Part shown: positions 1 through 10,200 of the stretch, one piece after another | Layout of the letters: the number at the start of each line of letters is the position of its first letter | Position numbering within the stretch: position 1 is the stretch's first letter | From: Candidatus Omnitrophota bacterium | GTDB taxonomy: Bacteria > Omnitrophota > Gorgyraeia > Zapsychrales > Fredricksoniimonadaceae | Reading direction: 5' to 3' | Length of the DNA: 32,717 bases | Assembly: GCA_023247575.1 (NCBI GenBank) | Contig: JAHFGE010000005.1 | Coordinates: forward strand, 1 to 32,717 | Made by a program: the position numbers and the translations under genes | The notes under the pieces: model-generated | What the model saw: only the letters and a program-made list of their open reading frames with translations | What the model was told of the DNA's origin: nothing | Databases searched by the model: none

Positions 1-855
1 CCGGACCTGGTAGCGCATTATAAGAAATTGAAAGAAATGGCGGAGGTATTGAAAAAGCTAGCGGATGATACGTTGGCTTTTTCATCCCGGGCGGCCGCCA
101 ATGCCCCCGACGCGGCGATGTCCGCCAGCAACAAAGTTTCTGGCGAGATCTTGCCAATTGGTCAAAGACCAATTGGCGGAACGGCGACGAAGGGTACTGG
201 TGAGGAAAAAATTTTTAACCTTAGGGATCTGCCAAGCAGGGAGACTCCTCAATTTACAGAGGCGCAAGAGGCAGTCAGGCAATCTTTAGGGGATCTCCCC
301 CGGTTGGGAATGACTGTTCGCTTGGAGCAAGCCCTTAACAACTTGGGTTGGGAACTAAATCCGAGGAACCCAGGAAGAAAGGCAAGTATTGAGGCCCTGC
401 AAAGCGCTAGGCCAGGGGATGTTATTTTATCTTCTACAACAAGTGAAGGAACATTAAGTAAGGGTGATGCTGAAGATAGGGTAACGGACACCTCTATTGT
501 TTATGTGGCATCTTCAGCGGTCACGGAGAGACGCATTTTTGTTTTAGTTGAGAGCCCCAAAAATCCTACAGCGGCGCCGATGCCATGGGAGCGTGGTAAT
601 CGTGCCCCGGCGAGTGATAAGATTATGAAAGGTGGTATCGACTTCAATAGCCGCAACATGCAGATGGATGTTAATCCTTCGATCACACTCAGGATTAACC
701 CTGAGCGAAGTCGAAGGGTTAATGGCGAGAAGATTGATATCCGTTTTGACCCAGCCATGGTTGAGCAGTTCAAACGCGGCGATTTCACCGGCGTGCGGCC
801 GGTGATCCTCAACATCACGCCGATTCCAAGCCTATATTTTTTATTTGACATTTAA
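1..855 (+). CDS. Hypothetical protein, 5'-partial; C-terminal GGIDFN...FDPAM...PVILNITP domain
   Basis: Frame 1 is open from base 1 (PDLVAHYKKL...) through the TTG at 28 to TAA at 853-855, so the gene probably starts upstream of the window. GGIDFN is at 631-648. No enzyme motif recognised. Confidence 0.75.
   Translation, partial: PDLVAHYKKLKEMAEVLKKLADDTLAFSSRAAANAPDAAMSASNKVSGEILPIGQRPIGGTATKGTGEEKIFNLRDLPSRETPQFTEAQEAVRQSLGDLPRLGMTVRLEQALNNLGWELNPRNPGRKASIEALQSARPGDVILSSTTSEGTLSKGDAEDRVTDTSIVYVASSAVTERRIFVLVESPKNPTAAPMPWERGNRAPASDKIMKGGIDFNSRNMQMDVNPSITLRINPERSRRVNGEKIDIRFDPAMVEQFKRGDFTGVRPVILNITPIPSLYFLFDI
151..179. repeat. Intragenic palindrome (CCGCC/GGCGG-like family)
   Basis: gccaattggtc (153-163) - aaa - gaccaattggc (167-177), a perfect 11-bp inverted repeat extendable by two G.T pairs; encodes LPIGQRPIG. 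Confidence 0.7.
670..723. repeat. Double-hairpin element, copy 1 (in-frame intragenic insertion)
   Basis: gttaat-cct-tcgatcacactc-agg-attaac-cct-gagcgaagtcga-agg-gttaat; gttaat direct repeat at 670-675 and 718-723 (48 bp apart), its reverse complement attaac at 694-699. Confidence 0.85.
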
Positions 856-872
856 CCCTTTTTTGCCATAAT
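845..872 (+). promoter_or_regulatory. Sigma70-like promoter for rpsA-tyrS
   Basis: TTGACA 845-850, 16-bp spacer, TGn plus CATAAT 867-872; 80 bp upstream of rpsA ATG; overlaps the last codons of the upstream ORF. Confidence 0.6.
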
Positions 873-893
873 GGCCGCTTATCCCTACCGCTT

Positions 894-913
894 TGCCCCG
901 CCCTGGCGGGGCA
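894..913. repeat. GC-rich hairpin in rpsA leader (CCGCC/GGCGG family)
   Basis: tgccccgcc-ct-ggcggggca, 9-bp inverted repeat, no U-tract. Confidence 0.6.
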
Positions 914-952
914 GTGGGGAAATTCCAATCGAAAGAAAAGAGGATTAAATAA

Positions 953-2497
953 ATGAGTACTGAAAAATCAATGATGGAGGAGCTCTATGAGAGCACCCTT
1001 AAAGATATTAAGGAAGGAGAGATTATCAAAGGCACGATCGCCGCGGTGACCCCTAAAGAAGTCATCGTTGACATCGGGTTTAAGTCCGAAGGTTTTGTTC
1101 CCATTGAGGAATTCCGCAATCCTGTCGAACTGACCGTCGGCAGTCAGATCGAAGTTCTCATTGAAAATATTGAAGATGACAATGGCCGCCTGATTCTTTC
1201 TTATGGCAAGGCTGAGCGCCTGAAAGGCTGGCAGAAAATTTCCGATGATATCAATGAAGGTGATGTTGTCGATGGCCGCGTGGTGCGCTCCGTCAAAGGC
1301 GGCTATATTGTCGATGTATTTGGCATTGAAGCTTTCCTGCCCATGTCCCTTTCCGCCTTTAAGGGCGTTTCCAACCACGATATGACCACCAAGACTTTTA
1401 AGTTTGTCGTTGCCAAGATGAACAAGCAAAGACGCAACATCATCCTTTCCCGTCGGGAAATGGTGCAGAAAGAACGTGAAGAGGTGCGCGAAAAGCTTTG
1501 GAGCGAAATCAAGAAAGGCCAGAAGCGTAAAGGCATTGTCAAAGGCATTACCGATTTCGGTGTCTTTATTGATTTAGGCGGTATCGACGGTCTTTTGCAT
1601 ATTACGGACATGAGCTGGAGCCGCATTAACCATCCTTCCGAAATCGTCTCCGTCGGCCAAAAGCTTGAAGTGTTGATCCTGGATTTTGACAAAGAGAATT
1701 CCAAAGTTTCTTTGGGGTTAAAACAGATTGTGGCCAATCCCTGGGATGAGGCCGCCACCAAATATCCGGCCGGAAGCCGCATCCAGGGCAAGATCGTCAA
1801 CATCATGCCTTATGGTGTATTTGTGGAGATTGACAAAGGCATTGAAGGCCTTTTGCATGCCTCGGAAATCAGCTGGCAAAAAAAGATGGTTAATCCCCAG
1901 GAAATGTTTGAATTAGGCGATATGATTGAAGTGCAAATTATCAATGTGGACAAGGATGCCAAGCGCATTTCATTGAGCATGAAACAGCTGGAAGAGAACC
2001 CCTGGCGTACAGCCGCCCAAAAATTTAATGTAGGCGATAAAGTCAAAGGGATTGTGCGTGGCTTTACCGATTACGGTGCTTTCGTCGAACTAGAAGGCGG
2101 TTTAGAGGGCATGATCCATGTTTCCGATATATCCTGGACCAGGAAAATCAACCATCCTCAGGAAGTCTTGCATAAAGGCCAAGGGGTGGAGGTGATGGTC
2201 CAGGGGGTCGATGTAGAAAACCGTAAAATTACATTGGGCTTAAAGCAATTGCAGCCAAATCCATGGAATGACATTGCCCAGAAATTTCCGATAGGTTCCC
2301 TCGTCACTGCGGAAGTTGTGATGAATTCCAACTTTGGCGTATTTGTCAAATTAGAAGGGGATATTGAAGCCCTGGTCTATTCTTCCGAAATCGACAAACA
2401 ACAGGCTGCTGCTTTAAAACCTGGCGATCAACTGCAGGTGAAAGTCATTAAAGTTGACGTCGAAGGTATGAAAATCGGCGTTTCGGCGAGGTTGTAG
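953..2497 (+). CDS. rpsA: 30S ribosomal protein S1
   Basis: 514 aa; repeated S1 domains (VDIGFKSEG, DFGVFIDLGGIDGLLHITDMSW, IEGLLHASEISW, LEGMIHVSDISW); GAGGA SD upstream. Confidence 0.97.
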   Translation: MSTEKSMMEELYESTLKDIKEGEIIKGTIAAVTPKEVIVDIGFKSEGFVPIEEFRNPVELTVGSQIEVLIENIEDDNGRLILSYGKAERLKGWQKISDDINEGDVVDGRVVRSVKGGYIVDVFGIEAFLPMSLSAFKGVSNHDMTTKTFKFVVAKMNKQRRNIILSRREMVQKEREEVREKLWSEIKKGQKRKGIVKGITDFGVFIDLGGIDGLLHITDMSWSRINHPSEIVSVGQKLEVLILDFDKENSKVSLGLKQIVANPWDEAATKYPAGSRIQGKIVNIMPYGVFVEIDKGIEGLLHASEISWQKKMVNPQEMFELGDMIEVQIINVDKDAKRISLSMKQLEENPWRTAAQKFNVGDKVKGIVRGFTDYGAFVELEGGLEGMIHVSDISWTRKINHPQEVLHKGQGVEVMVQGVDVENRKITLGLKQLQPNPWNDIAQKFPIGSLVTAEVVMNSNFGVFVKLEGDIEALVYSSEIDKQQAAALKPGDQLQVKVIKVDVEGMKIGVSARL

Positions 2498-2506
2498 TTT
2501 TAAATC

Positions 2507-3655
2507 ATGTCCATCCCGGAAATGATCCAAAAACTGTCCTGTGGTGCCACCGAAATCATTCATAGCGATGATTTAGCCAAAAAGCTGGCTCTTAAGCGTC
2601 CGTTGGTTGTTAAGGCTGGTTTCGATCCCACCGCACCGGATATTCACTTAGGGCATGTGGTTTTGCTTAAGAAAATGCGGCAATTTCAAGACTTTGGTCA
2701 CAAAGTTGTCTTTTTAATTGGAGACTTTACGGCCCAGGTCGGAGACCCCTCCGGCCGCAATGAATTACGCAAGAGAATGTCGCCCCAGGAGATTGAACAA
2801 AACGCCAAAACCTATAAGGCCCAAGTTTTTAAAATTTTAGATTCCCAAAAAATCGAAGTCGTTTTCAACAGCCATTGGTTAAATAAGCTTAGCCCTCAGG
2901 ACCTGCTCGAGCTAAGCGCTCATTTGACCGTAGCCCAAATGCTGGCCCGCGCCGATTTCAAGAAACGTTTTGAATCCGGACGGGAAATTAGTTTATTGGA
3001 ATTCATTTATCCGCTTTTGCAGGGGTATGATTCCGTGCACTTGAAAGCCGACGTGGAATTAGGCGGCACTGATCAGAAGTTTAATTTACTGATGGGCCGT
3101 CAATTGCAGGAAAGTTATGGACAGCCGCCACAGGTGGTTGTGATGACACCGTTACTGGAAGGTACTGACGGAGTGCAGAAGATGAGCAAGTCGCTGGGCA
3201 ATGATATCGGCATTAATGAAGCGCCCAATGAGATCTTTGGCAAGGTCATGTCCATCAGCGATGAATTGATGTTTCGTTATTATGAACTTTTGACTGATAT
3301 GGATTTGGCCGTAGTGAAAAAGCTCCATCCTAAAGAAGCAAAGCTGCAGTTAGCCCAGGCTATGGTGGAAATGTTCCACACAAAAGCCCAAGGGCCAAAG
3401 GCACGCGAACATTTTGAACACACCTTCAGCCAGCATCAACTGCCGCAGGACATTCCTGAATATCAAATCCATCCCGGCCAAAAATTGCCGGACATTCTCA
3501 TGGCAGCCAAAGTGGTGCTTTCCAAGAATGATGCCCGCCGCTTGCTTCAAGAGAAGGCCATCACCTTTCAGGATACAGTCCTTATGGATGAACACTGGTT
3601 TCCTCAGCCAGGCATCCTCAAAATCGGCAAACGCCGTTTTTTGCGATTAAAATAA
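2507..3655 (+). CDS. tyrS: Tyrosine--tRNA ligase
   Basis: GFDPTAPDIHLGH (HIGH), YPLLQGYD, ELGGTDQKFN, KMSKS and a C-terminal S4-like tail ending IGKRRF. Confidence 0.97.
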   Translation: MSIPEMIQKLSCGATEIIHSDDLAKKLALKRPLVVKAGFDPTAPDIHLGHVVLLKKMRQFQDFGHKVVFLIGDFTAQVGDPSGRNELRKRMSPQEIEQNAKTYKAQVFKILDSQKIEVVFNSHWLNKLSPQDLLELSAHLTVAQMLARADFKKRFESGREISLLEFIYPLLQGYDSVHLKADVELGGTDQKFNLLMGRQLQESYGQPPQVVVMTPLLEGTDGVQKMSKSLGNDIGINEAPNEIFGKVMSISDELMFRYYELLTDMDLAVVKKLHPKEAKLQLAQAMVEMFHTKAQGPKAREHFEHTFSQHQLPQDIPEYQIHPGQKLPDILMAAKVVLSKNDARRLLQEKAITFQDTVLMDEHWFPQPGILKIGKRRFLRLK

Positions 3656-3677
3656 AATTAAAAGTTAAAATTATTTC

Positions 3678-3706
3678 TTGACATTATTTTTGGTGACGCA
3701 TATACT
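3678..3706 (+). promoter_or_regulatory. Strong sigma70 promoter for the tRNA-Thr-rpmG-secE-nusG cluster
   Basis: TTGACA 3678-3683, 17-bp spacer, TATACT 3701-3706; A/T-rich UP-like tract immediately upstream. Confidence 0.8.
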
Positions 3707-3759
3707 TCTGGTTCATTTAAAAAGGCTGCAGGCGGCCTAAAGCTTGTGGGAAAGCAAAA

Positions 3760-3814
3760 TTGAATACATTCATTACACTCAGTATTCAACCCTGAGTGTA
3801 ATCGAAGGGTTGAA
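3760..3814. repeat. Double-hairpin element, copy 2 (tRNA-Thr leader)
   Basis: ttgaa-tac-attcattacactca-gta-ttcaa-ccct-gagtgtaatcga-aggg-ttgaa; ttgaa at 3760-3764 and 3810-3814, ttcaa at 3785-3789. Confidence 0.85.
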
Positions 3815-3819
3815 CCACT

Positions 3820-3892
3820 GCCCCTGTAGCTCAGTTGGTAGAGCACGTCCTTGGTAAGGACGAGGCCAGCGGTTCAATCCCGCTCGGGGGCT
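3820..3892 (+). tRNA. tRNA-Thr(GGT)
   Basis: Cloverleaf: acceptor gcccctg/cgggggc, D arm gctc/gagc, anticodon arm cgtcc-ttGGTaa-ggacg, T arm agcgg-ttcaatc-ccgct; CCA not encoded. Confidence 0.96.
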
Positions 3893-3918
3893 TAAGGCTT
3901 AAAAAATCTCTTCTGTGA

Positions 3919-3941
3919 CTCCGCCACGATGTATGGCGGAG
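3919..3941. repeat. Hairpin between tRNA-Thr and rpmG (CCGCC/GGCGG family)
   Basis: ctccgcca-cgatgta-tggcggag, 8-bp stem, followed by gagcgcgaa rather than a U-tract. Confidence 0.6.
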
Positions 3942-3964
3942 GAGCGCGAAAGTTAAGAAACGTT

Positions 3965-4117
3965 ATGCGCGAGACAATTCATTTTCAGTGCACCGAGTGT
4001 CATCGTATCAATTATAACAGTACTAAAGATAAAAGAAAAAATCCGGAACGTCTGGAATTAAAAAAATTCTGTCCGTTTTGCCGTAAACACACCATCCACA
4101 AAGAGACGAAGAAGTGA
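3965..4117 (+). CDS. rpmG: 50S ribosomal protein L33 (Zn-ribbon, C+ type)
   Basis: [12 protein letters not shown]...NY...[19 protein letters not shown]; start moved from 3929 to ATG 3965 to match family length (50 aa). Confidence 0.95.
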
Positions 4118-4144
4118 AGGCCTTAAAATAACGCAGGAGTTCAT

Positions 4145-4218
4145 AGGCCTGTAGCTCCAATTGGTAGAGCGACGGTCTCCAAAACCGTGCGTTGCAGGTT
4201 CGAGTCCTGCCAGGCCTG
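4145..4218 (+). tRNA. tRNA-Trp(CCA)
   Basis: Acceptor aggcctg/caggcct, anticodon arm acggt-ctCCAaa-accgt, T arm gcagg-ttcgagt-cctgc; usual position between rpmG and secE; 3' CCA not encoded. Confidence 0.96.
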
Positions 4219-4275
4219 TTAATGAGATCCAAACTTATGGAGCGAAACGAACATAAGTTTGGAGAGCGAATTAAC
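4218..4275. repeat. Nested hairpin with GAGCGAA loop directly after tRNA-Trp
   Basis: Inner 12-bp stem tccaaacttatg (4228-4239)/cataagtttgga (4252-4263), loop gagcgaaacgaa; outer stem gttaat (4218-4223)/attaac (4270-4275). Confidence 0.75.
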
Positions 4276-4301
4276 CCCGCCAACTGCGGGATATTCATTA
4301 C

Positions 4302-4487
4302 ATGATTACTAAAGTTCAAAATTTTATTGGAGAAGTGCTAGCGGAGATGAAAAAAGTCTCCTGGGTCACCCGTCAAGACCTGATTGATTCGGCATTAATT
4401 GTGGTGGTCAGTTCTCTATTATTAGGTTTGTTTTTAGCCGTCGTCGACTTTGTTCTTTCCAAAGGTATCGCCCATTTAATAAGGTAA
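4302..4487 (+). CDS. secE: Preprotein translocase subunit SecE
   Basis: 61 aa, EMKKVSW motif followed by one hydrophobic segment; upstream of nusG. Confidence 0.95.
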   Translation: MITKVQNFIGEVLAEMKKVSWVTRQDLIDSALIVVVSSLLLGLFLAVVDFVLSKGIAHLIR

Positions 4488-4494
4488 AGAATTT

Positions 4495-4568
4495 ATGACC
4501 CATTCGACTTCGCTCAGGGTCATCCTGAGCGAACAACGAATAAATTAAGGAAGTGAGTCGAAGGATGA
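4495..4568. repeat. Double-hairpin element, copy 3 (overlaps nusG start)
   Basis: atgaccc-attcgacttcgctca-gggtcat (4495-4523), then tcatcct (4520-4526) pairing with aggatga (4562-4568) around an expanded loop gagcgaa...gagtcga. Confidence 0.8.
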
Positions 4569-5089
4569 AATGGTATGTTGTGCATACACAAACAGGTGCG
4601 GAGGAAAGGGCCAGGGCAGGCTTGGAAAGTCGTATGGCTACAACGCCCTTAAAGCAATACGTGCAAGAAGTTGTTGTCCCAACGGAGCAGGTTTCTGAGG
4701 TGCGCGGTGGGAAAAAACGGATCACCACCCGTAAGTTTTTTCCGGGGTATCTTTTAATTAAGATGGAGATGAATAAAGAAAGCTGGTATCTGGTCAAGAC
4801 CACTCCGGGGATTACTGGTTTTATCGGTCCAGGGCGTCAGCCTCAACCCCTGACGGATGCAGAGGTCGACAATATCTTGAAGCGTACGGAAGAGACGGGT
4901 ACAAAGCCTTCTCCTAAGATTGTGTTCGAAGTAGGAGAGGCTGTTCGTATCGCGCAAGGGCCATTTGCGAATTTTAGCGGTTCGGTCATGGAAGTGTATC
5001 CTGAACGTGGAAAATTAAAGGTTAGCGTATCGATTTTCGGTCGTTCGACGCTGGTTGAACTGGAGTATTGGCAGGTAGAAAAAATTTAA
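4565..5089 (+). CDS. nusG: Transcription termination/antitermination factor NusG
   Basis: KWYVVHT, FFPGYLL, TPGITGF, KOW domain GPFANFSG, IFGRST. ATG 4565 preferred; in-frame GTG 4553 is the alternative. Confidence 0.96.
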   Translation: MKWYVVHTQTGAEERARAGLESRMATTPLKQYVQEVVVPTEQVSEVRGGKKRITTRKFFPGYLLIKMEMNKESWYLVKTTPGITGFIGPGRQPQPLTDAEVDNILKRTEETGTKPSPKIVFEVGEAVRIAQGPFANFSGSVMEVYPERGKLKVSVSIFGRSTLVELEYWQVEKI

Positions 5090-5101
5090 GGAAGAATTAA
5101 T

Positions 5102-5527
5102 ATGGCTAAAGAAGTTGTCGCTCAAATCAAACTTTATGTTCCTGCTGGTCAAGCAAATCCAGCTCCTCCGGTTGGCCCTGCTTTAGGTCAACATGGGGTG
5201 AATATCATGATGTTCTGCAAAGCTTTTAATGATAAAACCAAAGGCAAAGAGGCTCTACCTTTACCGGTTATTATCTCCGTTTACAAGGACAAATCTTTTG
5301 ATTTTGTGATTAAAACTCCGCCGAGTTCAGCTCTTATCAAGAAGGCAGCCAAACTGGCCAAAGCCTCTGGTACTGCGGGTAAGGAAGTTATTGGATCATT
5401 GACGATGAAACAGGTGGAAGAAATTGCCAAAATGAAAATGGATGATTTAAACACGGTTGATAGGCAGCAGGCGATAGCCACTATTGCTGGAACAGCCCGT
5501 AGTATGGGAATTGAAATAAAGGGATAA
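5102..5527 (+). CDS. rplK: 50S ribosomal protein L11
   Basis: [27 protein letters not shown]. Confidence 0.98.
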
Positions 5528-5537
5528 GGATTAGAAT

Positions 5538-6221
5538 ATGTCACGAATAAGCAAACGGATGAAACAAGTTAACCGTCTGGTGGAAGAAATCAAAAGCCCA
5601 CTTCCTTTAAGTGAAGCTATTTTCTATTTGTCCAAAGCCCCCAAAGTCAAATTCGATGAGACAGTAGAAATGCATTTTAATCTCAATGTGGATTTAAATG
5701 CTTCTGATCAGGGTGTACGCGGAACCGTTATCCTGCCCCATGGGACTGGTAAATCGGTGAGAGTAGCCGTATTTTGTAAGGGGGATGCCGTTGCCAAAGC
5801 TCAAGCTGCTGGTGCCGATTACATCGGTAGTAATGATTTAATTGACAAAGTTGTCGGTGGTTTTATGGATTTTGATGTGGTTGTTGCCACCCCTGACATG
5901 ATGCGTGATATTAGCAAGTTGGGTAAGGTTTTAGGCCCCCGCGGGCTTATGCCTACTCCCAAAGCGGGTACCGTCACCATGGAGGTGGATCGTGCTATTA
6001 AGGAAGTCAAAGCTGGTCGCATCGAATTTAAATCCGATAAACAAGGTGGAATTCATTTAGGTATTGGTAAAATATCTTTTACAGAAAATAAATTAGTAGA
6101 AAATGCCCAACAGGTGATCGAAGCGGTCAATCATGCCAAGCCATCGACGGTCAAGGGTAATCTGATTAAAAGTTTGTCTGTGGCAACTACCATGGGCCCA
6201 GGAGTCAAGGTGTCTATATGA
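5538..6221 (+). CDS. rplA: 50S ribosomal protein L1
   Basis: KFDETVE, LPHGTGK, LGPRGLMP, TTMGPG. Confidence 0.98.
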   Translation: MSRISKRMKQVNRLVEEIKSPLPLSEAIFYLSKAPKVKFDETVEMHFNLNVDLNASDQGVRGTVILPHGTGKSVRVAVFCKGDAVAKAQAAGADYIGSNDLIDKVVGGFMDFDVVVATPDMMRDISKLGKVLGPRGLMPTPKAGTVTMEVDRAIKEVKAGRIEFKSDKQGGIHLGIGKISFTENKLVENAQQVIEAVNHAKPSTVKGNLIKSLSVATTMGPGVKVSI

Positions 6222-6739
6222 AAGTGGGACAACTCTATCGCAAGCGCATAGCCGGTACCGTTCAGGACGGTGTTACCAAAAGAAGTAATACTTTTCTTGT
6301 GACTTGGAAGGCGATTTCTTCTTCTCAAATGGACTCTTTGCGCAAAAATTTGAAACGCAAGAAAGCCGATGTACTGGTTTCCAAAACTTCTATTGCCCGC
6401 CTGGCGCTTAAAAATTCTCAGTATGAAGAGTTAGCTAATCGTATTAACGGCCAAATGGCTTTTGTGTTCACTGAGGCCGATGCCTCTGAAATTTGCAAAG
6501 TTTTGGTTAAATTTGCCAAAGATTACGAAGGTTTTGTGGTGCAGGGAGGGTTGCTCAACGGAAGCCTTTTGACTCCTGAGCAAGTCAAGACTTTGTCTGA
6601 GTTACCATCGAGAGAAGTATTGTTAGCCACACTTCTTGGTACGTTCCTGGCGCCTATGTCTAATTTGGTGGGCGTTTTAAGCGCCACACCTCGTAATTTT
6701 TTATCAATTTTAAAACAGAAAAGTGAAAAGGGAGGGTAA
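6218..6739 (+). CDS. rplJ: 50S ribosomal protein L10
   Basis: 173 aa between rplA and rplL; [14 protein letters not shown] (KNTL-like), [14 protein letters not shown]; ATGA overlap with rplA. Confidence 0.92.
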
Positions 6740-6743
6740 TGAG

Positions 6744-7142
6744 ATGTCTACAGCCGTTAAAGAAATCAGTAAGGAACAAGTAATCGAGTGGCTCTCCACC
6801 CAGCCGGTCCTTGAAATTGCCGGCCTTGTGAAGGATCTCGAAACCAAATGGGGCGTATCCGCAGCTGCTCCTGTGGCCGTGGCTGCCGCTGGTGGTGCCG
6901 CAGCAGGCGCTGCTCCTGCCGAGGAAAAAACCTCATTTGACGTCATCTTAAAAGAAGTGGATGCCGCTAAAAAAATCGCTGTGATCAAAGAGGTTCGCTC
7001 AGTCACGAATTTAGGTTTAGCTGAAGCCAAAACATTAGTCGAATCAGCTCCTAAAACCATCAAAGAAGCTGTTCCTAAGGCCGAAGCTGAAGAACTCAAA
7101 AAGAAAATTGAAGCTGCCGGCGCTAAAGTAGAATTGAAATAA
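6744..7142 (+). CDS. rplL: 50S ribosomal protein L7/L12
   Basis: Ala-rich hinge, [24 protein letters not shown]; ATG 6744 follows SD GGAGG (6731-6735). Confidence 0.97.
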
Positions 7143-7161
7143 CCTTTGGTTATTTCAATTC
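7131..7161. promoter_or_regulatory. Perfect 14-bp inverted repeat over the rplL stop codon
   Basis: gaattgaaataacc-ttt-ggttatttcaattc; function (attenuation or processing) is inferred only from position. Confidence 0.55.
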
Positions 7162-7233
7162 CATCCTATCCCGCCTTGGCGTGAGAAGGATCCTTTGTCT
7201 TTAAGATTCTTCGCCCTTTGGGTTCAGAATGAC
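7162..7233. repeat. Degenerate inverted doublet of REP-like units in the rplL-rpoB spacer
   Basis: Left unit catcct...gaaggatcc (7162-7193); right unit agattcttcgccctttgggttcagaatgac (7204-7233), whose reverse complement reads gtcattct-gaacccaaagggcga-agaatct. Confidence 0.6.
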
Positions 7234-7279
7234 GAAAATTTTTTCGACCATTAACTTTAAGGAATATGGAATATAATAT

Positions 7280-10200
7280 ATGGAAAAACTAAAAATTAGA
7301 AATTTTAGTAAGTTCCAGGATAATTTTGAATTACCACAATTATTAGATATTCAAACTATTTCTTACGAAGAGTTCCTGCAAAGAGACGTCCTTTCCGATA
7401 AACGCAAAGATCGGGGATTGGAGGAAGTTTTTCGGGAAGTTTTTCCTCTGGAAAGCTATGATGCGCAGATTCGTCTGGAATATATTAGTTATAGTATCGG
7501 CAAAGAAAAGTATTCTCGCTTTGAATGTCAGCGTCGCGGGATGACTTATGCCGCTCCTTTAAAAGTAAAGCTACGCCTGATCACACCGGTTGACATCAAA
7601 GAACAAGAAGTCTATTTTGGTGATTTTCCATTAATGACAGATACGGGTACTTTTATTATCAACGGTGATGAACGGGTAGTAGTTTCTCAAATTCAGCGCC
7701 CCCCCGGCGTATCCTTTGAGGAAGAAACCCACCCAACGGGTAAAAGCATCTATCATGGCCGTATCATTCCATCTCGTGGGGCCTGGTTTGAAATCAAATA
7801 TGACCTTAACGATGTATTGATCGCCTATGTGGATCGTCGCCGTAATTTTCCGGCTACTCAAATCTTACGTATCATGGGGTTAGCTACCACCGATGATATG
7901 AAGAAAATGTTGGGCGATCATTTCGATAAACTTAAAAATACTTTAGAAAAAGATCACACCACCAATAAGGAAGAAGCCTTATTAGATTTCTATCGAAAAA
8001 TGCGTCCCACTGAACCGGCCACCATCGAAGTGGCAGAGACGTTATTTTTCCGTTTATTTTTTGATCCTAAACGTTATGACTTAAGCAAGGTCGGCCGTCA
8101 CATTGTTAACCGCAAATTAGGGACCAACGTCCCTATGGATAACCGGGTCCTCGATATTGAGACGGTGGTAGCGGTGATTAAGTATTTAATTGGTTTACGT
8201 GAGGGAACTGGAGAATGCGATGATATTGACCACCTTGGTAATCGCCGCATTAAATCAGTTGGAGAACTGGTTCAAAACCAGGTCCGCATCGGCTTAGCTA
8301 GACTAGAACGTTCGATTAAGGAACGTTTGGTGGTGATGAGCTCTTTTGAGAATTTAACCGTTCATCATTTGATTAACTCTCGGCTTTTTTCCAATCAGAT
8401 CCAGGATTTTTTTGCCCGCAGCCAGTTGTCGCAGTTTATGGATCAAGTCAATCCCTTATCGGAAATGACCCATAAACGCCGTATGTCCGCCTTAGGGCCA
8501 GGAGGACTTTCTCGTGAACGAGCTGGTTTCGAAGTGCGTGATGTTCACCCGACTCACTATGGCCGTGTCTGTCCTATTGAGACGCCTGAAGGTCCCAACA
8601 TCGGTTTGATTGCTTCTTTGACCACTTGTGCCAGGGTCAATGAACTGGGCTTTATTGAAACCCCTTACCGTAAAGTTGTCGACGGTAAACTTAGCAAGAA
8701 AATTGAATATTTAACGGCTGATGTCGATCAAAACAAACACATTGCGCAGGCGAATACACCCGTGGATAAAGACGGTAATTTCACAGAAAGCCTAGTGTCG
8801 TGTCGTTATAAAGGGGATTTCCCTCACATTAAACCTCAAAAAGTGGAGTATATGGATGTGTCGCCTAAACAATTAGTATCTGTGGCGGCTGCTTTAATTC
8901 CTTTCCTTGAACACGATGATGCTAACCGTGCGCTGATGGGGTCTAATATGCAGCGTCAATCGGTGCCTTTAATGGTTTCGGAAGTTCCTCTGGTCGGAAC
9001 TGGTATGGAGGCCAAGGTGGCTCGGGATTCAGGTGTCGTTGTCATAGCCCATGAAGATGGTACTGTAACCAAGGTCGATGGCCGTGAAATTGTGATTGGA
9101 AAAACGCTTTATCCTTTAAAGAATTTTCAGCGTTCTAATGCCAATACTTGTGTGCATCAGCGTCCATTGGTTAAATCTGGGCAAAAGGTAGAGGCTGGAG
9201 AGGTCGTTGCCGACGGTATCGGTACTAAATATGGCCGTTTGGCCTTGGGCCGCAATGTGCTGGTAGCCTTCATGCCGTGGCGTGGATATAACTTTGAGGA
9301 CGCCATTTTGATCAATGAACGCATTGTACGTGAAGATGTTTTTACCTCTATTCACATCGAGCGTTTTGAATGCGAATGTCGCGAGACCCGCCTAGGCAAT
9401 GAAGAAGTCACCCGTGATATTCCCAATGTCGGCGATGAAGCTCTCAAGGATCTCACCGAAGAAGGTATCATCCGCGTGGGGGCAGAAGTTAAAGCCGGCG
9501 ATATTTTGGTCGGTAAAGTTACTCCCAAAAGCGAAAAGGAACTTTCCCCTGAAGAACGCCTTTTGCGTGCCATTTTCGGTGAGAAAGCCGCAGATGTTCG
9601 GGATACTTCCTTGACTTTGCCTCCGGGCATTGAAGGAGTTATTGTGAATGTGGAAGTCTTTGCCCGCAATGAGCGCGGTCGCAAATCCAAACAAGACAAA
9701 ACAAAAGAAAACGCAGCCGTTCATAAAATTAAAGAATACTACAGGCAAGAAATAGAAATTATTAACCAAGAGAAAGATGCGAAGTTAAGCAAAATCTTGG
9801 GCATTGATAAGAAGCGCGTAGCTAAACTAACCATCGAGGATATTGATGAAAGTTCCGAGGCTCGCGAAGTGATGGGTTTTTATATGGACAAAATCGCTCA
9901 ATTGATGGAGGAGCAAGAGAGAGAGTTGGATTTGATCCGTCGTGGCGATGAGCTACCCGCGGGTGTATTAAAGCGTGTCGTGGTGTATGTAGCTACCAAA
10001 CGTAAGATTTCCGTCGGGGATAAAATGGCTGGCCGTCATGGTAACAAAGGTATTGTTTCCCGTATTATGCCGGAAGAAGATATGCCATTTTTAGAGGATG
10101 GCCGATCAGTCGATATCGTGCTTAATCCTTTGGGCGTGCCTTCCCGTATGAATGTGGGACAACTTTTGGAGACTCATTTAGGCTGGGCGGCGCAGGCCCT

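Follow-up and report, generated by a model that had tools for sequence, protein, structure and literature searches.

Hairpin dimers with a 4-nt direct repeat complementary to their own centre in an Omnitrophota genome and other bacteria

The window analyzed here, a 32,717-nt stretch (positions 1 to 32,717 of contig JAHFGE010000005.1) from a Candidatus Omnitrophota bacterium (GCA_023247575.1), contains three copies of a short hairpin element. Each copy is a dimer of two inverted hairpin units that is flanked on both sides by the same word and carries the reverse complement of that word at its centre. Dimers of this family are present or absent at orthologous sites, where the empty site already carries the word, and they are scattered over many phyla. 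We tentatively propose that the centre is inherited and guides the element to a complementary target.

Architecture of the dimers and the 4-nt rule

Direct reading of all three copies gives the order flanking word (X), minus-strand unit, reverse complement of X, plus-strand unit and X, which confirms the shared layout described in the initial annotation. Copy 1 reads GTTAAT-CCT-(12-nt loop, minus sense)-AGG-ATTAAC-CCT-GAGCGAAGTCGA-AGG-GTTAAT. The three words are TTGAA, TTCAA and TTGAA in copy 2, whose left unit has diverged, and ATGA, TCAT and ATGA in copy 3, whose right loop has grown to 35 nt. The features are as follows.

670..723, no strand: copy 1, entire dimer with both flanking words, within the open reading frame (ORF) at 1-855, by direct reading
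675-722, equivalently 671-718: inserted piece of copy 1, 48 nt, from gaps at homologous loci
671..674, no strand: left target word of copy 1, TTAA, with the 4-nt register taken from the family-wide profile
679..690, minus strand: left-unit loop of copy 1, conserved 12 nt, T-type, minus strand reads GAGTGTGATCGA
695..698, no strand: centre word of copy 1, complement of the target word, common to both stems and apical in the long-hairpin fold
703..714, plus strand: right-unit loop of copy 1, conserved 12 nt, C-type, GAGCGAAGTCGA
719..722, no strand: right target word of copy 1, by direct reading
3760..3814, no strand: copy 2, dimer between tyrS (2507-3655) and a tRNA (3820-3892)
3760-3764 and 3810-3814, flanks TTGA(A) of copy 2; 3785-3789, centre TTCAA; 3794-3805, right loop
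4495..4568, no strand: copy 3, dimer between secE (4302-4487) and nusG (ATG at 4565)
4495-4498 and 4565-4568, flanks ATGA of copy 3; 4504-4515, left loop; 4520-4523, centre TCAT
4527..4561, plus strand: right loop of copy 3, ~23 nt longer than usual, by direct reading
1..855, plus strand: host ORF of copy 1, with its 5´ end beyond the window edge

Each unit consists of a closing pair, CCT, a 12-nt loop of the form GAG-Y-NNN-R-TCGA, and AGG. Two inverted units joined via the central tetranucleotide form a dimer of ~44 nt plus one 4-nt word, and the middle strand is able to pair with either flank to give two overlapping hairpins of 8–9 bp. The genome that holds the window (G000) is a metagenome-assembled genome (MAG) of 1.50 Mb in 166 contigs that is 87% complete. 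It contains 245 bare loop motifs, 63 of which have a perfect stem of at least 3 bp. For the chance test, a unit was defined as the loop motif with a stem of at least 4 bp, and 20 shuffled G000 genomes were used as the control. G000 contains 60 such units, compared with a mean of 1.35 and a maximum of 3 in the shuffles; stems of at least 7 bp occur 20 times in G000 and never in the shuffles. The combination of conserved loops and pairing stems, first noticed in the window, exceeds chance and belongs to a family in G000. Within the loop, positions 4 and 8 covary as a Watson-Crick pair (C-G, T-A or G-C), seen in 51 of 55 units of G000 and in 70 of 84 units elsewhere, which indicates that the unit hairpin is real at the nucleic-acid level.

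One long hairpin, as had been proposed, is the minimum-energy single-stranded DNA (ssDNA) fold of all three window copies, in which the two units are paired with one another and the centre word is at the apex (z −3.9 to −5.4, and no shuffle as good); the two short overlapping hairpins are the alternative fold. Loop identity failed as an age clock, since the loops are too conserved across phyla.

The relation between flanks and centre was measured on 61 strict dimers with flanks from many phyla, which were reduced to 57 by duplicate removal. The three-strand layout of flank, centre complement and flank is present in 37 of the 57 non-redundant dimers, in agreement with the earlier statement that the centre is the reverse complement of X. 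Over six successive positions in these 37 dimers, the identity between left and right flank is 0.30, 0.97, 0.95, 0.97, 0.97 and 0.24, that between left flank and centre complement is 0.22, 0.97, 0.92, 0.97, 1.0 and 0.97, and that between right flank and centre complement is 0.92, 1.0, 0.92, 0.95, 0.97 and 0.27. Pairing between each flank and the centre covers these four bases and, in addition, the closing pair of the unit, and this position-by-position comparison of sequences shows a direct repeat of exactly 4 nt. The repeated word is thus real, but the length of 4–6 nt first assigned to it is not retained; the fifth and sixth matches in copies 1 and 2 come either from the closing pair of the unit or from chance. 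Both arms match the centre complement at five or more of six positions in 31 of the 61 dimers (permuted flanks: mean 0.43, maximum 3, 500 permutations) and at four or more in 40. No dimer among the 57 has a direct repeat without a matching centre. By inspection, 14 of the 15 listed head-to-head dimers of G000 fit the template, and the exception is a decayed copy on contig C46.

Orthologous sites with and without the element

The window copies were compared with homologous loci and with contigs from a separate groundwater study (run X2), which derive from a close relative of ~95–97% identity. Copy 1 is without usable coverage in run X2, and its empty sites come from homologous loci only: six of nine such loci have a gap of exactly 16 residues, where the site reads GTN-NAT, and the remaining three, which are more distant, have gaps of 14, 14 and 7+2 residues. 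At copy 2, a run X2 contig joins 3759 to 3810 and skips 50 nt; five letters fit either side of the junction, equal to a single TTGAA. Copy 3 is missing from a 13,757-nt run X2 contig that joins 4493 to 4565 (192 nt on the shorter side) and from five of five same-genus loci, in which the secE stop codon is followed by 7–9 nt and then ATGAAATGG, with ATGA present once.

Further G000 dimers within genes behave in the same way. The dimer in a 583-codon ORF on C26 is a 16-residue insert with a clean gap in three of five loci, and its empty sites read CTGA, CTGA and TTGA. The ruvB dimer is a 16-codon insert relative to four of four loci, with GTCAA at three empty sites and GTTAA at one. In a TatD-like gene, the dimer corresponds to a single 16-residue gap in three of four loci (split 5+11 in the fourth), and the empty site reads TTAA in two relatives where G000 has CTAA. 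The reverse case also exists: the same-genus genome G002 has a dimer for which the orthologous site in G000 is empty. A hydrolase-like gene carries a lone unit as a 21-nt, 7-residue insert in five of five comparisons; the unit's sole candidate flanking word, GC, is its own complement and is uninformative on inverted copying of the target. The host proteins of the C131 and C163 dimers have no orthologue in five same-genus genomes, and hence no empty site.

The presence and absence of copies at orthologous sites indicates that insertion or precise loss is discrete and recent and that X was in the target beforehand, which supports a non-autonomous mobile element as initially suggested. The expectation that empty sites carry a single X holds for the three window copies and, with X or a close variant, for three further G000 dimers, so that in these alignments X is shown to have pre-existed at the insertion site. 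The empty sites also bear on the view that the dimers are an immobile motif of structured RNA or DNA that selection maintains, or a product of local replication slippage. Conserved loops, covarying stems and strong folding would all fit such a motif. However, it is disfavoured because copies are discretely present or absent at orthologous sites even between near-identical strains; in addition, copies sit within unrelated genes in either orientation, and no Rfam family matches. We consider this explanation very improbable.

The standard insert of 48 nt equals 16 codons, and its frame is without a stop at the six in-ORF copies. The C-terminal domain of the host ORF of copy 1 is common to many large proteins of the genus. 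This domain, GGID.N...DPAM...PVI.NITPI, closes many very large proteins with open frames of up to 3907 residues, and two G000 paralogues (window 1-855 and C116:~2500-2870) have hairpin inserts in it at nearly the same place. At copy 3, the extra piece of the right loop holds an AAGGA Shine-Dalgarno-like word ~15 nt upstream of the nusG ATG. In relatives, nusG begins 7–9 nt past the secE stop codon, and from its sequence the extra piece may substitute for a ribosome-binding site displaced by the insertion. At the spot of copy 2, a same-genus genome (G007, locus L005) has another, different unit from this superfamily upstream of its orthologous tRNA, which suggests an insertion hot spot before this tRNA. 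A search of window positions 1-8000 against Rfam returned two tRNAs and nothing else, with no family for the hairpins. A loop-like motif with a 4-bp stem inside a gene at window 7039-7050 is probably a chance match, since ~1.35 such units are expected per shuffled genome.

Selection or copying of the target word

The word counts in rule-following dimers are nine for TCAA/TTGA, four each for TTAA, CGAA/TTCG, CCAA/TTGG and TGAA/TTCA, and few for others. X is biased to TTAA-like words, which recur both inside single genomes and from one genome to another; with orientation taken into account, the centres have the consensus ATTAAC, around which they cluster. The initial annotation named a few fixed stems, used regardless of flank, as evidence against its proposal, and the data go part of the way there: X is not free. 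A sub-type with the centre TCGA/TCAA is found at TCGA twice, within loops of other units. In one MAG, X and the outer flank are both common to five copies, which indicates that the dimer there is part of a larger repeat. Dimers with identical loops bear different centres in different genomes, and within G000 a given pair of loops comes with TTAA in some copies and with TTAG in another, altered on all three strands. A metagenome scan with both exact loops recovered one contig, too few for a comparison within a subfamily.

Because X is biased and recurrent, the centre may select its target instead of being a copy of it. As a working model, the centre would be a built-in guide that, as ssDNA, pairs with a target tetranucleotide complementary to it, and a trans-acting enzyme would cut and join beside the target word; the right-hand X may in that case belong to the element and not be a duplication made by repair. 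The principle would be that by which IS608 reads its TTAC target via a guide tetranucleotide. In the IS200/IS605 group (IS608, ISDra2), as described in PMC5934647, a target of 4–5 nt pairs with an internal tetranucleotide near the hairpins, the word is kept on the flank and excision is precise. The same source describes target reading by IS608 as base pairing that can be reprogrammed (PMC5934647). IS608 is the only established system that we can cite in which the element's own DNA reads a 4-nt target by pairing. The dimers resemble this group in that target and centre are complementary tetranucleotides, the guide role in the dimers being predicted only. We rank guide-like target choice by an inherited centre first, with confidence that stays short of even.

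Several observations weigh against this guide model. Lone units of 21 nt, very small for a transposon, are also inserted. Twenty of the 57 dimers lie outside the rule, including five from Dehalococcoidia in which the pairing is instead between the two outer flanks. X shows no asymmetry relative to element orientation. With a single shared guide, a change in the centre would need a second change at the right-hand X. The geometry also differs from that of IS608: the hairpins are inverted and not parallel, the pairing is plain antiparallel Watson-Crick, and the same word stands on both sides, whereas IS200/IS605 elements have distinct left and right cleavage words and no duplication. The search for an enzyme adds further points. 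No units lie beside the Y1 transposase genes of G000 on C126 or C42, nor within 1.5 kb of 17 Y1_Tnp loci in seven other dimer-bearing genomes. Y1_Tnp has no match in a complete 2.6-Mb Dehalococcoidia chromosome with five dimers, and none in two of five genomes of the Candidate Phyla Radiation (CPR). An autonomous parent was sought among 23 inverted unit pairs 60–6000 nt apart, none of which has a 4-nt repeat. G000 contains no repeats longer than 379 nt, an absence that is weak evidence in an 87%-complete MAG.

Y1_Tnp genes are present in G000 and in seven of ten other dimer-bearing genomes (four of five and three of five). A 231-residue Y1 gene of G000 (C126:1736-2431) has its own 16-nt inverted repeats on both sides, and RAYT genes flanked by long terminal inverted repeats have been described (PMC3733652). 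A 183-residue Y1 gene (C42:2636-3187; its first 120 nt also end C152:1-120 and C88:1-120) is, judging from the assembled contigs, multi-copy, because it is joined to at least two different upstream flanks; partial Y1 paralogues are also found. TnpB was not found in G000, and neither G000 nor the tested dimer-bearing genomes have a Y1 transposase with insertion sequence (IS) ends that match the dimers. The original remark that no enzyme is encoded alongside the element holds, and none of the examined Y1 genes is flanked by units.

These genes are relevant to the possibility that the dimers are a family of repetitive extragenic palindromic (REP) sequences or REPINs served by RAYT, a domesticated Y1 transposase, as in the known REPIN-RAYT system. 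As in REPINs and bacterial interspersed mosaic elements (BIMEs), two inverted short hairpin units make one long hairpin, the copy number is high, and the arrangements with other hairpin modules are mosaic and nested. RAYT-like Y1 genes occur in G000, and an 11-copy GTAG...CTAC REP family of this genome holds a unit in its apical loop. In contrast to REPINs, the dimers have no GTAG or CGTC tag and begin with the target word and CCT, no RAYT flanks them, and they have an exact 4-nt repeat with a complementary centre. Moreover, many copies lie within genes, and the family is patchy across many phyla and not vertically kept. We regard this explanation as quite improbable. Membership in REPIN-RAYT or IS200/IS605 is not supported; a working likeness is possible.

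The initial annotation instead proposed fold-back or template-switch synthesis, through which the target would be copied into the centre on insertion. The inverted X would be templated by a 4-nt staggered break or by the unit hairpin folding back, any 4-mer would be usable, and the stems would be built at each site. Such copying would explain why repeat and matched centre are invariably seen together, each 4 nt long, the length that a 4-nt overhang would template. It would also explain the different centres of same-loop dimers between genomes and the change from TTAA to TTAG on three strands within G000. However, X is strongly biased and recurrent, the same sub-type occurs twice at TCGA, and X together with the outer flank is common to the five copies of one MAG. 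Dimer L056 has a perfect 6-nt direct repeat with an imperfect centre. We know of no established bacterial mechanism that yields X-unit-revcomp(X)-unit-X, which also counts against copying, and the literature searches made turned up none. The centre looks inherited, and a model in which it picks out its complement as target accounts for the data no less well; we rate the copied centre as unlikely, next in rank after the guide.

An ordinary MITE (miniature inverted-repeat transposable element) would require neither guide nor copying. A DDE transposase would move it with 4-bp duplications at TTAA-like sites, the units would be its terminal inverted repeats, and the centre would be a TTAA-like spacer that matches the flanks through shared preference plus selection, or quasi-palindrome correction, for stable hairpins. 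Terminal inverted repeats (here the ~20-nt units) with a fixed-length target repeat are the signature of a MITE, and the dimers share its non-autonomous nature. The consensus centre ATTAAC includes the palindrome TTAA, and a degenerate G000 copy (C26:14663-14716) keeps both stems although its loops have decayed. Against this, the non-palindromic words CTGA, GTCAA, ATGA, TTAG and TTGA are matched on three strands and present at empty sites, and the intermediate class with a repeat and an unmatched centre is not seen. Unlike bacterial MITEs, of which Correia/NEMIS, RUP and Nezha are examples (PMC3733652), the dimer is only ~44 nt long and has a centre complementary to the duplication, and no parent IS with these ends was found in G000. 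A search of G000 for a piggyBac-type transposase (DDE_Tnp_1_7) gave no match, a result that has no positive control, as the control genomes likewise gave none. An ordinary MITE is also unlikely in our view and is placed after copying.

Distribution, novelty and arrangements

A 16-mer around the C-type loop is present in eight of 41 related genomes, with 13 matches in G000 and none for the reversed control. The strict dimer core occurs in three of 401 genomes sampled from the phylum and in 55 stretches of a species-representative collection. The titles of the dimer records name Omnitrophota, Planctomycetia MAGs, Dehalococcoidia, Anaerolineae, a Gloeobacterales cyanobacterium, Saccharibacteria, Roizmanbacteria, Jorgensenbacteria, Thermodesulfovibrionia, Vicinamibacteria and a gammaproteobacterium. 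G002 and an Omnitrophota groundwater record have the same two dimers (L041 and L056). Such a patchy spread is as expected from transfer or fast turnover. In its most complete form, the guide model describes a self-addressed miniature transposon of ~44 nt whose apical tetranucleotide would set a 4-nt integration site by pairing. With an enzyme acting in trans, it would have reached at least eight bacterial lineages by transfer, CPR genomes smaller than 1 Mb among them, and would have written 16-residue peptides into essential genes. This full form is doubtful.

The ATYAAC/GTTRAT-type stems have what we take to be a partial likeness to the core sites of integron attC. Rickettsia palindromic elements (RPE) are longer than the dimers and are not known to obey a target-complementary rule. 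The two are alike as in-frame palindromic inserts in working genes, which here are 16 codons long and lie in ruvB, the TatD-like gene and others; they differ in sequence family. In-frame palindromic inserts in genes have been reported as RPE and intragenic REPs, and REP dimers have also been published (PMC3733652). A literature search of main texts, which included the exact loop strings, returned work on REP, RAYT and IS608 but no account of this loop family, nor of any centre that complements the duplication. We therefore class the dimers as a previously undescribed form of REPIN- or MITE-like hairpin elements, with a mechanism that is inferred.

If the centre is a guide, the dimer would be the smallest known DNA that bears its own address, a four-base change would re-aim it, and it could lead to a novel enzyme that acts on single-strand DNA. 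For a centre copied from the target, the insertion chemistry would be one not yet described. The dimers also matter for the annotation of uncultured bacteria, as 16-residue inserts in RuvB, the TatD-like protein and large surface-type proteins. Contig ends may fall in the elements; one contig of a further run (X1) ends at window 714, within the copy 1 loop. Since dimers differ between near-identical strains, they could be used as strain markers.

Units are found singly, as head-to-head dimers, in chains, as dimers nested within another unit's loop, and at the tip of a REP. The GTAG...CTAC REP of G000 has a 14-bp stem, and its apical loop contains one hairpin unit; examples are at C48:1585, 3238 and 5222, C61:11909, C98:2488 and C109:9293. 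On C109, a plain GTAG...CTAC REP without a unit lies ~100 nt downstream. A second hairpin module (CCTGCCTCGCACCGAGTGC ... GCTCGGCACGAGGT), with 28 pattern matches in G000, is inserted between unit stem and loop or is flanked by units (C36:8496-8767; C59:2078-2349; C125:883-1154). Six of its copies lie within an element of ~200 nt with 'ctaaa'-rich inverted arms, which forms a nested hairpin mosaic. At C58:39725-39828, a KdpA-like ORF is lengthened at its C-terminus by a chain of four units, with one dimer nested in another, and this chain stops 3 nt short of the ATG of a KdpB-like gene.

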